DNA from: Chrysomallon squamiferum
Lineage: Eukaryota; Animalia; Mollusca
Assembly (NCBI GenBank): GCA_012295275.1
Contig: CM022679.1
Span: 13,268,001 to 13,332,000, forward strand
Direction of reading: 5' to 3'
Length of the DNA stretch: 64,000 nt
Positions 15,321 to 21,300 of this stretch are shown piece after piece (positions within the stretch are counted from its first letter, which is position 1; each line of letters begins with the position of its first letter). The position numbers were made by a program, and so were the translations under genes. Below the pieces are notes generated by a model that had not been told where the DNA came from, did not search any database, and was given only the letters and a program-made list of their open reading frames with translations.

Positions 15321-18300
15321 ATGGCGATCCCCACAGGCAGTGTTATTCGTAGCTTCTGCTCTCAACTTCTCAGACAGCAAACAAAAACATGTTTGTGTTC
15401 AGTGACAGCTGCACCAATTCGACATGTGTCTAGTGGTGTGTGAATTAATTTTATTTATTTTGCATGACATTCAAAATAAATTAGATGAAACTGTTTCCAC
15501 ATGTAACTTTTTTGTAAGGTATCAAAGTTTCAACACTGATTCAATAATGCTAATATAATACCTGCACAATTCTTTGCATTAAATTATTAAAATAAGAATA
15601 TATATTTATACATCGGGACTTACATCAGTAATTATTTGCTAGTAATAGCAGAATGAACAAAATCGCAGTTGATTCTCTCTCTCTCTCTCTCTCTCTCTCT
15701 CTCTCTCTCTCTCTCTCTCTCTCTCTCTCTCTCTCTCTCTCTATATATATATATATATATATATATATTTTGTGACATTGTTAAACAGTGCACTGTGACA
15801 TTAGTGTTAAAGTAAGTAACACTTACCAGTGAAGAAGATATGCTTGGAGGATAACCAGATTTGGTAAACCAGAACTATTGCATAATAATTTTGTTATACG
15901 TGTCCACAGACAGCATAATATAACTAAGACACATAGATATCTGTGTAAAATACAAATTTCACCAGCACTGCAAAATAAGTTTATTATCTATCAAACAAAA
16001 TACAAACTTGAGCTTTTGCCATAATCATATTTTAATCAGTCAAATTTTAAAGTCCTGTTGCAGTTGCATTACATTAAAGTCCTTAATGATAAATGGCAGA
16101 AAAAAAATCATTCCTCCATCATGAAAATTAACATATTTACCAAAACTGGCATTACCATTTGGTTTATATTTTTCCAGGAAGTTACGAGTACATCATTGTT
16201 GATAAAAAGGGTGAAAAGAAAAATGTTGGATACATTCAACTGAATCGTCCAAAAGCTCTGAATGCTTTGTGTGATGCATTGATGCTGGAGGTGACAAAGG
16301 CACTTGATGAATTTGAGAAGGATAAAACTATTGGCTGCATTGTTCTGACTGGCACTGAGAGAGCTTTTGCTGGTCAGTTTGTTTTTAAATGATATTTCAA
16401 ATAATTAAACATTTGCTATTCAGAAAATAAAGAAATGCTTCTGATGTGAACAGCATCAAAATGTACGTGGTAATGATGCAGTGATTAAAACAAAAATTAC
16501 CCTACCTAAAATAACATATTACTACAGCTGTTAAAAGTTTTTCTTATACTCTTTCTTTTATGTCCCTCAGACAATTTTCTTTTCTTGGCATTGTTTTTTT
16601 TATTTGAAACTATTAACAAGTTTTGCTAAGATGTGAATTTGTTTTGCTCGATATAGCTGGAGGCATTTTTAGGGTTTTTTTTGTCTTGTACTTGCAGCTG
16701 GGGCAGACATTAAAGAGATGCAGAACAAGACATTTTCTGAGGTTTTCGGGGGAAATTTTCTTAACCACTGGTCCAGAGTATCGGACTGCAGAATGCCAGT
16801 TATAGCAGCTGTTAATGGGTTTGCAGTATGTAATGCTTTGTCAACTGCTTTGTCCAATAACAGCTTGCAGTGCTGAGATAGTAAATAAGAATATAAGAAT
16901 TTTTTTTTTTTAAATTTTCACTATCAACTTTCAGAATATAACTATCTTACAAGTAAATTTTTCCTTATCACTTTTTCTTTCAGAAACTGACTTAAACAGA
17001 ACTTACTTTTAAGTTTCATCTTGCAGATAATATTGTTAATGGCTTCAGATTGTGCTTATTTTGTTGTGGATTAAATTTCTGAAGATTTATTTCAGTTTTA
17101 CTGTTAGCCATGGGTTTGTGTTAAGTACATGGATTTTTTTAGTTGTTCTGGACTTTTTTCTTTTTTTTTAAAGTTGATGCTGGTTCATGGATTTAATATT
17201 GGTTTCTTTTGTTGTTGTTGTTGTTTTTGTTTTTTTGCCTAATTGTTATCAGTGTGGTTTTCATAGTTAACAGAATATTTGTGACTTAGAGAGAAGACTG
17301 TTCAGATGATAATGATGAATGTACTGATTAATCCATTAATTGCTGTTGGTCAGATATCTCAACATAAATGAATTCACTTTAGTTTAGCTCTGATAGTTTT
17401 CCCCCAAATACCTGATGCTGAGGAGTATCTGTTGCACCAAAATTTGGCACTGTAAAGGCACATTTGAAGTGTCTTGTTTTTGTTAATTTATAATATATCT
17501 GTGATATGTGCTGTCATGTTTTTGAAATGGGTGTACTTAATTACTGCATCCTTCTTGTCATGGATACAAATATATTGCATTGTTAATCTGTATATTCTTT
17601 TTATTATTTGTATTATATATTTTTTTTTTTTTTGTTTACCCTTATCAAACTCCCCTTATCCTTTTTTTTGTGTCTTAATAAGAAGCTTGTTTAATACATT
17701 TATATAATCTGTACAGGAAAGGATAATTGTGTAGCATTTAATGATAAAGAGATATAAAATAATGTTAGGTACAGTACTTCTTTGCAGGTTCCTTTAAAAT
17801 ATTTTTGATTTCAACAGTGCTCCAAGATTGAGTTGTCAAAATCATTATTTTGTCTAGTCTGCATGAAGAACCATATAGATATTAACATTAACAGTAACCT
17901 TTAAACATACAAAAGAAAACTCCCTCTCTTTGATTGTTACAAATATATAAAAAGTATGTGAATAAAAGGAACATGTTTAACAGTAGTATTGAAATAAACT
18001 GCACATAGGTTTGTTTATTCATTCAGCACTTATAAGAACATTTGACACATAATGAAAACAATAAAAATTAGTGGAGATGATGATTAAAAAAAAAGTATAC
18101 TTTTCTTTTGTTTTTCTTTTTGTTCATTAAAGCTGCCCATAGCACCAAAAGACACATATATTATTAAACTGGGAATTGTTTGTGTCGTTTCAGTTGGTGC
18201 AGATATTGAAGAAATGAGACACAAATCATTTAAAGCTCTTCATGTCACTGACTTTCCTTCAGCACTGTCAGCTATCACCCATGCTAGATTACCTGTAGTA

Positions 18301-21300
18301 GGTGCAGTGAACGGATATGCTGTACGTAGTGGTTTATTAGTTGTTTTTCAATGAAGAAATTAATACTGTCACAGTTTTTTTCTGTTACAACTCCAGCACT
18401 TGATAATTGTAACAACTCAAGTGAACCAAAGATGAGACCACTGGGTTTTATATTGCATTCCACTCAGTGCCTGCAGTTTGATGTATCATAGGCCATAGTT
18501 CACATTTCTCTGCTTTTAGCTAAAAGGAAAGTATAAAAAATAACTTGCTGTTAATTAATAAGACTGTATCGAGAGATGTGATGTCAGTGGGTTTCTTTTC
18601 TGTTGGTTAAGCAAAAATCAAATGATTGGCCTTCAAACAAATATTTCATTTATTTCCAGCAGTATTTTTTTATTTCATCCAAAGAATGAAGATGAATGAT
18701 TTAATTAGATGTGCTGCTGCTTCTGTACGTTGTTTACTAAACAGTGTATTCAGGTGCAGCTATTTTTACTACATTTCTTATATATTTGGATATATTTTAT
18801 TTCTGGCCCATCTTTTCCAGTAAATATTGTGATGACAAAGACAAACAAAGAATAATTAAATCACTGGCTAAGTTATTGCTGGTCGTTAACTTTGCTTATA
18901 TTTCCAGAAAAGATATTTTGCCACATCTGTTAGTTAATTCATTAGAGCTTTTTTAAGGGTTTTTTTTTTTTTTTTTTTTTGTCTTACTACTGGTGATGAT
19001 GCTATGCATGTACTTCCTTTTCTGTAAAATTTTACTTTTTGGGATTAAATGAAATTCATATCTGCACATTTATTGTTTATCTAGGAGAAATAATACAGCT
19101 GTTTAAATAATTTGTGTAAATCTCAGCCTGCAAGTTTGTTCTTGGCTGAACTTGGATAGTTAAAATAACAGTAAAAGTAATAGTATTTTCTCATCAACTA
19201 ATACTAGCTTTTGTTACAGTCGGAGATGACATTAAAGAAATGAATCAAAAACATTTCCTTGATGTTTTTCAAACTAATTTCCCATGTGCCTTGGACAGTG
19301 TAGCCCACTGTAGGATACCTGTGGTTGCTGCAGTTAATGGATTTTCTGTACGTTTTCATTTTTAACCCTTGCCCAGATAAGAAAACATAAAAATATAAAA
19401 ATAATAATAATAAAAAAGACAAATCATCTCAGAATAATTTAAAGAATTTTCTAAATAATACATTATTCAGTTTTCTGAAAATATCCTTTCATTCTAAGTA
19501 TTTCATCACATGTGGGTTCAACAAGATTCTTCCTTTCATAATTTTTTGAAGAGAAATATCTATCCCATTTGGATATTATTTAATCATAAAGTGGATAAAC
19601 CTAGTCTTTTTATAAAATTATTGCAGATTATATGTCAGTAATGTTTTTTTAATATAAATATAATTTTTTTGCATTTTACTTTTTCAGTTAGGTGGTGGGT
19701 GCGAATTGGCCATGATGTGTGATATAATATACGCTGGTGAGAAAGCTAAATTTGGACAACCAGAAATACAACTTGGTACAATTCCTGGTTAGTATCTTTC
19801 TTTGATGTATCATGTGCTGTACTCAAATATCAGATGCGCATGTGTGTGTGCATTCGTGAATTAATTTTTGTGTGCAGTCATGTGTACTGGTGTGAATCTC
19901 TCTTTTATATTTAAAATTATGTAGATATGACACTGAACAAAACTTGCATATCTGTTTGTAGTTGTATAAATTCAAGTATTAAATGGTAAATACTTTAGAA
20001 TGGGATATGATTAGTCAGGACAAATAGTTAATGTGACAGTGGCCTTGATTATCCTTAAGGAGTAGATTAAATGATAATTCTTAAGAGTAGACTATAATGA
20101 TAATTTCCTGCTATGTTGTATGGTGATAATCATTATTTATGTTTGTCATTCAGTCTGGCTGGCTATCTACAGACATTTTGTAAACTTAACTGAAAATGTT
20201 AAAATTAGATTGTCAGTTAAATCATTTTACTTAGTTATTCATTTTTTTATTTTTGTTTTTTTTTTTTTTTTTTTATTACAATTTTTTTTTTTTTTTTTTT
20301 TTAATTATTTTTCATTTTCAATTTTTAACTGATGTTGATTTTAGGTGCTGGAGGAACACAGAGACTCATTAGATCAATAGGAAAATCAAAAGCAATGGAA
20401 ATGGTTTTAACAGGAAACATGATAACTGCACAGGAAGCAGAAAAAGCAGGTTTGAAATTTGTCAGTTTTTAAACAGAAATTTTTGTACGTTACATTAGTT
20501 TTGCTTTATGCTGTTTGATCTCTGATATTTATATATACTTTTATTTGTAAATGTTTTATTTAAATATTTTCTTCTTTTTTTTTACAATAAAGGACTGGTT
20601 AGTAAAGTATTTGAGCCAGGATCTGTTGTAGATGAGGCAGTGAAATTGGCTGAAAAAATTGCTGGTTACTCAAAGCTGGTTGTAGCTATGTGTAAAGAAT
20701 CTGTCAATGCAGGTAGGCAATTTCTGTGACAATGTTTTTTTAAATTTTACCCATTTGTTGTGAAAAAATAGGTAATTAAATTAATGGTATGAATAGCTAT
20801 TTAAATACAGTTAATGCAGTATTGTGTGACCATTTTGTTTTGTTTTTCTGTCATCAGTCTTGCACTATATAATGAAGCCCTTGAGTAGTCATGTATAAAT
20901 GTCTCCTTTTTTTAATTTTTTTTTTTTTTTCAAATTTTTTTGTAGTTGCCTTTTCTTTTGTTTCCTCATCTTTTTTTTTTTTTTAGATTTGCATCATACT
21001 GAAAAAAATATTTATTTTCGAAAACATTAAAATACTTATTAATACACAATCAGTCGGTAGCTTGTGGTTCATTTGGTTGTCTGATTTTCTTTCAGCAAAT
21101 GAACTGACACTGAAAGAAGGACTTCATTTTGAGAAAAGAATATTTCACAGTACATTTGCTACAGTGAGTTCACTTTATAAAATAGGATCCCAGAAATTAG
21201 CTTCACATCACAGTAGAATAATTTCAAATTTTAAATATCAGATGTCAAGTATTTCCTGTTTCTGATATAATCTTCACAAAAAACTGTTCCTTATATTACA

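Follow-up and report, generated by a model that had tools for sequence, protein, structure and literature searches.

Three tandem copies of exon 3 in ECHS1 of Chrysomallon squamiferum: a likely one-of-three splice cassette shared among gastropods

Why should the gene of a core metabolic enzyme carry three versions of an exon that shapes its substrate pocket? The question is raised by a 64,000-nucleotide stretch of the Chrysomallon squamiferum genome (assembly GCA_012295275.1, contig CM022679.1, positions 13,268,001 to 13,332,000 of the forward strand; hereafter the window), in which the gene of ECHS1, a mitochondrial enoyl-CoA hydratase that serves in the breakdown of fats and amino acids, occupies ten exon blocks spanning 15321-21729 on the plus strand. 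Exon 3 occurs there as copies 3a, 3b and 3c, which, judging from their frames and junctions, are likely spliced one at a time. Comparison with other species adds what the original prediction for this locus had missed: by sequence, the cassette is gastropod-wide and not a local event, 3a being of the canonical type and 3b and 3c of a derived type. On balance, we think that 3a encodes the canonical enzyme and that the 3b and 3c forms would favour other, probably longer or bulkier, enoyl-CoAs over crotonyl-CoA. The exons are as follows, in window coordinates (ORF, open reading frame; ECH, enoyl-CoA hydratase; X1-X4, RNA runs).

15321-15435, plus strand: exon 1, coding part with the start codon, likely mitochondrial presequence (ORF reconstruction; RNA joint to exon 2 in X1, X2 and X4)
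16178-16372, plus strand: exon 2, shared (ORF reconstruction, RNA joints)
16698-16825, plus strand: exon 3a, canonical copy with Ala96, Ala98, Lys101, Leu117 and Trp120 (rat ECH match, RNA joints)
18194-18321, plus strand: exon 3b, derived copy with Val96, Ala98, Glu101, Pro117 and Leu120 (likeness to Gigantopelta aegis)
19220-19347, plus strand: exon 3c, derived copy with Val96, Asp98, Lys101, Pro117 and Leu120 (one RNA joint; Asp98 in other exons)
19688-19787, plus strand: exon 4, shared, with Gly141, Glu144 and Glu164 (RNA, residue mapping)
20345-20449, plus strand: exon 5, shared (RNA)
20593-20712, plus strand: exon 6, shared (RNA)
21096-21163, plus strand: exon 7, shared (RNA)
21664-21729, plus strand: exon 8, coding part with the stop codon (RNA, ORF reconstruction)

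A sequence check bore out the three copies as first described: each is 128 nt long, bounded by AG and GT, and open in a single frame. The introns around the cassette measure 325, 1368, 898 and 340 nt. In reconstructed transcripts, exons 1-2 followed by any single copy and exons 4-8 give a 298-residue ORF, whichever copy is used. Without a copy the product ends after 114 residues, and with two or three copies after 153, the premature stops lying 358-625 nt upstream of the last junction. Stops that far upstream would trigger nonsense-mediated decay. The claim that only one-of-three inclusion gives protein therefore stands as far as forms with zero, two or three copies stop early, but it is not absolute: a second GT is found 4 nt 3' of the donor of each copy, and its use would produce an in-frame double inclusion of 342 residues in all three pairings. 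The RNA contigs of the four runs list no double-inclusion joint via this second GT.

The copies have diverged far from one another and are still coding. Any two of them agree at 18-23 of 42 residues and at 52-60% of bases, and third codon positions differ most. The proportion of synonymous differences between them is 0.67-0.92, near saturation, and the synonymous distance (dS) is 1.7 or saturated, against a non-synonymous distance (dN) of 0.37-0.48. The constraint anticipated from dN/dS was thus seen among the window's own copies, where the comparison was made, and indicates that purifying selection acts on all of them. Neutral simulations gave a stop-free outcome in 1698/20000 and 2430/20000 runs, so that the open frame taken alone is modest evidence. 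The copies are adjacent homologous exons of equal length class and phase, the orthologous derived exons of other species vary by whole codons only (40-42 residues), and the introns flanking the copies are mutually unrelated in sequence. A tblastn search across the whole window found no fourth exon 3 copy (next best E 0.016).

Five runs cover the window in part, and four RNA runs (X1-X4), all from one study, were compared as contigs, which record presence only: rare forms are dropped and isoforms cannot be ranked. Exon 2 is joined to 3a in three of the four runs (X1-X3), 3a to exon 4 in two (X1 and X4), and exon 2 to 3c in one. Neither skipping nor double inclusion occurs among the listed contig joints of the four runs. 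The X2 bin that holds 3b has a depth of 1.15, unexplained by the listed contigs; it would correspond to a piece of about 128 nt at depth 2, which is a hint only. Absence of RNA cover over 3b in X1, X3 and X4 was not taken as evidence.

The identity of the gene as ECHS1 was confirmed. The 3a peptide has rat ECH as its top match in the PDB (E 1e-12), and P0001, the 3b-type orthologue from G. aegis, matches PF00378 (ECH_1) with E 8e-88. The structural model of this 3b-type protein has the ECHS1 fold, with a mean predicted local distance difference test (pLDDT) score of 77, and its top Foldseek match is 1DUB (65% identity, template modelling score 0.96 of the target). Residues 1-38 of the P0001 model have low pLDDT, which together with homology makes it likely that exon 1 encodes a mitochondrial presequence.

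What exon 3 contributes to the enzyme can be read from known structures (papers are cited here and below from the portions of their text available to us). The three copies align gap-free to residues 97-138 of the 290-residue chain 9RGQ. In line with the original proposal, Ala98 (in loop-2) and the loop of Leu117 and Trp120 (residues 112-121) are encoded by exon 3, and the catalytic Glu144 and Glu164 by shared exon 4. The oxyanion Gly141 also lies in exon 4; Phe263, Phe279 and Lys282 are also encoded by shared exons, and all forms share the C-terminal oligomer domains. Within loop-2 (96-101), the NH of Ala98 makes the oxyanion contact, a backbone role, and Ile100 and Lys101 contact the adenine and the 3'-phosphate, whereas residues 112-121 form the "substrate specificity loop" above the acyl-tail pocket (PMC13126182). 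In ECHS1, K115-K118 shifts with octanoyl-CoA (PMC12003839), and across crotonases the segment corresponding to exon 3 is described as what chiefly sets the chain-length range (PMC6048173).

The derived exons depart from the canonical ones at these positions. Residues were counted in 24 variant exons, picked by their Phe-Pro motif, and 31 canonical exons. Pro117 is present in 24/24 variant and 0/31 canonical exons, a count that is partly by construction; a Trp in the stretch 114-126, present in 0/24 and 31/31 respectively, is not. Lys101 is found in 7/24 variant against 30/31 canonical exons, Ala98 in 20/24 against 31/31, and Asp98 in 4/24 against 0/31, while Gly97, Asp99, Met103, Phe116, Asn135 and Gly136 are kept in all rows. 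Among the window's copies, only 3a retains the Leu117/Trp120 pocket lining, both others having Pro117/Leu120; Ala98 is present in 3a and 3b and replaced by Asp in 3c. The gene is ECHS1, yet by these residues the 3b and 3c products would not be canonical ECHS1 enzymes. Since 3c exchanges the oxyanion-loop Ala98 for Asp, its activity may be low or its function a different one; of the three forms it is the likeliest candidate for poor turnover of normal substrates or for specialisation.

The same exon type recurs in other gastropods. A search with the 3b peptide returned 14 candidates, one of them a relative: XP_041363132.1 of G. aegis, a peltospirid vent snail, with an exon 71% identical. The 3b form of the window is identical to this protein at 250/298 positions, which points to a close relationship between the two snails. 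A word-based protein search with the 3c peptide gave no candidate, which is weak evidence. The full-length homologue search was evaluated over its best 120 of 991 matches, the set meant below wherever 120 homologues are mentioned. The variant exon, with Pro after Phe116, occurs in 10 of these 120, all ten from named gastropods: Gigantopelta, Haliotis, Patella, Pomacea, Littorina, Physella, Plakobranchus and Biomphalaria (three entries). The carriers span five lineages, Neomphalina, Vetigastropoda, Patellogastropoda, Caenogastropoda and Heterobranchia. Bivalve, chiton, annelid, brachiopod, arthropod and vertebrate entries among the 120 have the canonical exon type only, and no cephalopod is named there. 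Several gastropods also show the canonical type only, but this is a matter of annotation and has no weight as proof. Of the 261 matches from a profile search against 50% representatives, 150 were evaluated, and 14 of these carry the variant exon.

In seven species, two database proteins are identical except for exon 3, and in an eighth, Patella caerulea, one model (P0004) has both copies in a row, so that the pattern is found in 8/8 pairs checked. The three Haliotis pairs and the Biomphalaria pair are RefSeq isoforms X1/X2; Biomphalaria models fuse three tandem copies and one Plakobranchus model fuses two. With ten gastropod entries and seven species with exon-only protein pairs, the conservation in related species that the original prediction called for is present. 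Among the 120 homologues, G. aegis is represented by P0001 alone, which has a 3b-type exon and bears no isoform number; the variant may thus be this snail's main annotated form.

Some further observations concern the homologues. Canonical exons of caenogastropods and heterobranchs (P0025, P0031, P0040, P0126 and others) have a one-residue insertion (43 residues), which is missing from the variant exons of the same species. In the models P0010 (Tupaia) and P0002 (Callosobruchus), segments of ECHS1 recur internally almost unchanged; these are probably duplicates from assembly or annotation and not diverged cassettes. A metagenome scan with 3b and 3c gave 80 loci, 38-49% identical; 42 segments from these were checked, and all are canonical-type crotonases with no Pro117 motif.

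Exon trees were built on 42 columns, with five redundant rows left out. They hold 12 of the 14 variant exons from the profile search, one being dropped as identical to a Haliotis X2 exon and another (P0216) having come later. Variant exons make up one side of a branch, with support of 97/90 with 12 rows and 95/87 with 24 rows. Exon 3b is sister to the G. aegis exon (99/97), its terminal branch being 0.23 against 0.05 for that orthologue. The simplest reading, which is not proven, is a single duplication before the main gastropod lineages split; it would then be some 500 million years old, the oldest undisputed gastropods dating from about that time (PMC9048639). A window-specific triplication, with the three window copies as one clade, is weakly rejected by the approximately unbiased test (p-AU 0.045), and the test does not reject an origin of 3c from 3b within Neomphalina (p-AU 0.395). 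The Asp98 exons (window 3c, Biomphalaria P0007, P0180 and P0233) group at 89/73 on all columns but no longer do so once the trait columns 98, 117 and 120 are removed (p-AU 0.45). As the Biomphalaria model has its Asp98 copy second and not third, separate origins of Asp98 are possible. P0181, P0200, P0212 and P0216 form a distinct group of Phe-Pro exons in which Ala96 is mostly kept, three of them grouping at 97/94. In P0212 the variant exon follows exon-2 sequence and about 17 read-through codons, with no canonical copy between.

We infer from structure that the derived forms have an altered acyl-CoA preference. With Trp120 gone and the 112-121 loop fixed by proline, the acyl tunnel would be opened or reshaped at its end; in 3b, which lacks Lys101, CoA would be bound less tightly; and shared exon 4 would retain both catalytic glutamates. 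Several observations weigh against this reading, or against parts of it. Of the junctions foreseen for one-of-three splicing, the RNA supplies exon 2 to 3a, 3a to exon 4 and exon 2 to 3c, but the listed contig joints of the four runs contain none for 3b and none from 3c to exon 4; the exon 2 to 3c joint is a single low-depth X2 contig from a single study (depth 3.2, short side 29 nt), which reaches the last base of 3c. When columns 98, 117 and 120 are dropped, the derived clade is not recovered, though a single clade is not rejected either (two changes; p-AU 0.43), so the single origin leans on those residues. The exons of P0181, P0200, P0212 and P0216 keep a different start and possibly belong to another lineage; these entries may be non-gastropod, which would imply convergence or a deeper origin. 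Model confidence over the exon is 52-73 in the 3b-type protein against 63-79 in a canonical Haliotis control, a somewhat lower value of the kind to be expected when the underlying alignment is mostly canonical. The human triple mutant L117A-W120A-F263A lost crotonyl-CoA binding and activity (PMC12003839), a result to be expected of an impaired enzyme no less than of a shifted one. Finally, wild-type rat ECH already tolerates many acyl tails (PMC13126182), so the gain may be small.

The triple mutant leads directly to the alternative that survives best, although we hold it to be unlikely: the derived forms, chiefly 3c, could have little or no activity of their own and, as subunits, damp or tune the ECHS1 hexamer or hold acyl-CoA. 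Losing the Leu117/Trp120 contacts abolished binding and cut activity in the human enzyme, where A98G and the patient variant A98T also lower activity (PMC12003839). Ala98 is present in every canonical exon counted and invariant in the ECH set of PMC6048173, and the C-terminal oligomer domains common to all forms would let such subunits assemble. Set against this are the six residues kept throughout and the Ala98 of most derived exons, and it would be odd for a dead form to be the one used by the sole G. aegis protein among the 120 homologues.

A role in kinetics or regulation (CoA release, product inhibition, lysine acylation, temperature or hypoxia), with a largely unchanged substrate range, seems less probable still. 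Both fixed differences, at 117 and 120, are in the specificity loop and outside the CoA site, and window 3c retains Lys101, even though this residue, which makes the 3'-phosphate salt bridge, is scarce in the derived exons as a whole. The K101A change raised the activity of human ECHS1 (PMC12003839), and a canonical pocket that is already tolerant (PMC13126182) would also suit such a role. We regard it as improbable that 3b and 3c see little use or are decaying in this species, with unproductive splicing as their main effect: no 3b junction is listed, intronic RNA contigs occur around the cassette, the pyrimidine tracts of 3b (0.58) and 3c (0.63) are weaker than that of 3a (0.79), and the 3b end branch is longer than that of its G. 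aegis orthologue, but frames and splice sites are intact, synonymous sites are saturated, 3c is present in a spliced contig, and the exon type is conserved in five gastropod lineages. An assembly artefact or paralogue fragment is largely refuted by the low likeness of the copies, their unrelated introns, the RNA linking exon 2 to both 3a and 3c, and the same layout in other gastropods' database models.

A bolder version of the altered-preference reading can be put forward tentatively, and we would not expect it to hold in full. The cassette would be a gastropod splice switch, kept for about 500 million years, that makes a second and a third enzyme out of ECHS1. Pro117 forms would serve a snail-specific acyl-CoA pathway (for example, anaerobic short-chain acid metabolism or the degradation of algal compounds). 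The Asp98 exon, old and common to vent and pond snails, would bring a charge to the acyl site and so suit another class of substrates or another reaction, and the activities would be brought together in mixed hexamers.

Regarding how one copy would be chosen, introns of 325-1368 nt are too long for simple steric exclusion. Exclusivity may come from competing acceptors, with nonsense-mediated decay clearing skipped or doubled transcripts, and RNA pairing may assist the choice of 3c. Two weak candidate elements were found by comparing duplex energy with shuffles.

16617-16642, plus strand: candidate docking element 5' of 3a, possible partner of 19130-19154
19130-19154, plus strand: candidate selector element 5' of 3c

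Paired over 23 bp (-24.2 kcal/mol, an energy at least as low in 5 of 184 shuffles), the two elements could place 3a and 3b in a loop. This pairing is the best of four region pairs screened and therefore not significant after correction; the other three of the four show no clear duplex. No docking partner was found for 3b in this screen, 149 of 175 shuffles being as low. Inverted repeats within the cassette were discarded as mostly low-complexity. In P0004 of Patella caerulea, canonical and variant exons are linked by 15 read-through codons, which would fit an intron of only about 46 nt; an intron that short would make steric exclusion unavoidable in limpets.

Measured against canonical ECHS1, fold and catalytic residues are the same here, 3a matches the canonical loop, and the exon borders recur in fish-like genomic fragments. 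The difference is that a one-of-three cassette replaces Leu117, Trp120 and, in 3c, Ala98, and that no named non-gastropod among the 120 homologues has a Pro117 exon. The nearest relatives in kind are two other enzymes. Exon 3 of ACOX1 (ACOX1a/b) also consists of equal-size duplicated alternative exons in a beta-oxidation enzyme, and shifts preference between C10 and dicarboxylic substrates and C16-C24 (PMC11178532); an equivalent event reportedly arose separately in molluscs (PMC8373072). ACOX1 is, however, a peroxisomal oxidase of another fold with two copies and measured activity, whereas the effect in ECHS1 is predicted. Exons 6a/6e of coq-2 are likewise mutually exclusive homologous exons, one canonical and one lineage-restricted, the latter with two fixed changes near the substrate site and present in molluscs including Biomphalaria; they decide between ubiquinone and rhodoquinone, the substrate switch and its role in hypoxia having been shown genetically (PMC7434440). 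Unlike ECHS1, whose named variant carriers are all gastropods, coq-2 is a prenyltransferase with the switch in several phyla. More generally, tandem-duplicated mutually exclusive exons vary at residues near functional sites and keep the fold (PMC7954323).

The original statement that no such event was known for ECHS1 holds for papers but not for databases, where RefSeq X1/X2 models exist for several gastropods. The literature search, made over listings and the openings of abstracts, found no paper on ECHS1 alternative exons in molluscs, and neither ECHS1 nor "enoyl" occurs in the main text of the survey PMC7954323 or of the human catalogue PMC8373072; supplements, and for the search subscription journals, could list the event. 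The cassette is real and old, seems to be undescribed in papers, and belongs to a known mechanism class. Surprise is limited by that class being known and by isoforms already standing in gene databases without comment. As a core enzyme ECHS1 has been studied in depth; its pocket is nearly invariant and its deficiency is a disease in humans, and a natural series that swaps the specificity loop on an identical scaffold offers a direct test of the loop's role in acyl-CoA range. It would point to a gastropod metabolic capacity without counterpart in the listed bivalve and vertebrate homologues, and from coq-2 there is the precedent of a splice switch that is the sign of an entire pathway. The carriers include Biomphalaria, a host of Schistosoma, as well as abalone and apple snails.

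The window holds other features around this gene. Upstream of ECHS1, at about 8600-14000 on the minus strand, there are exons of the PROPPIN family (WDR45/WIPI-like; PF21032, E 1.5e-08). Another gene begins about 1.2 kb past the ECHS1 stop codon (about 22970-25316, plus strand), and its piece at 24993-25313 has no match in Pfam. A large multi-exon gene with a Rap-GAP domain (PF02145), which from its peptides we take to be tuberin/TSC2-like, extends over about 28000-55000 on the minus strand; one of its introns contains a broken Tc5/pogo-type transposase remnant (37672-38928, plus strand; PF03221, E 5e-09). Within exon 6 of ECHS1, one X1 RNA contig has four listed mismatches to the window at 20621-20648, three of them adjacent, which would reflect an allele, a strain difference or an assembly error.

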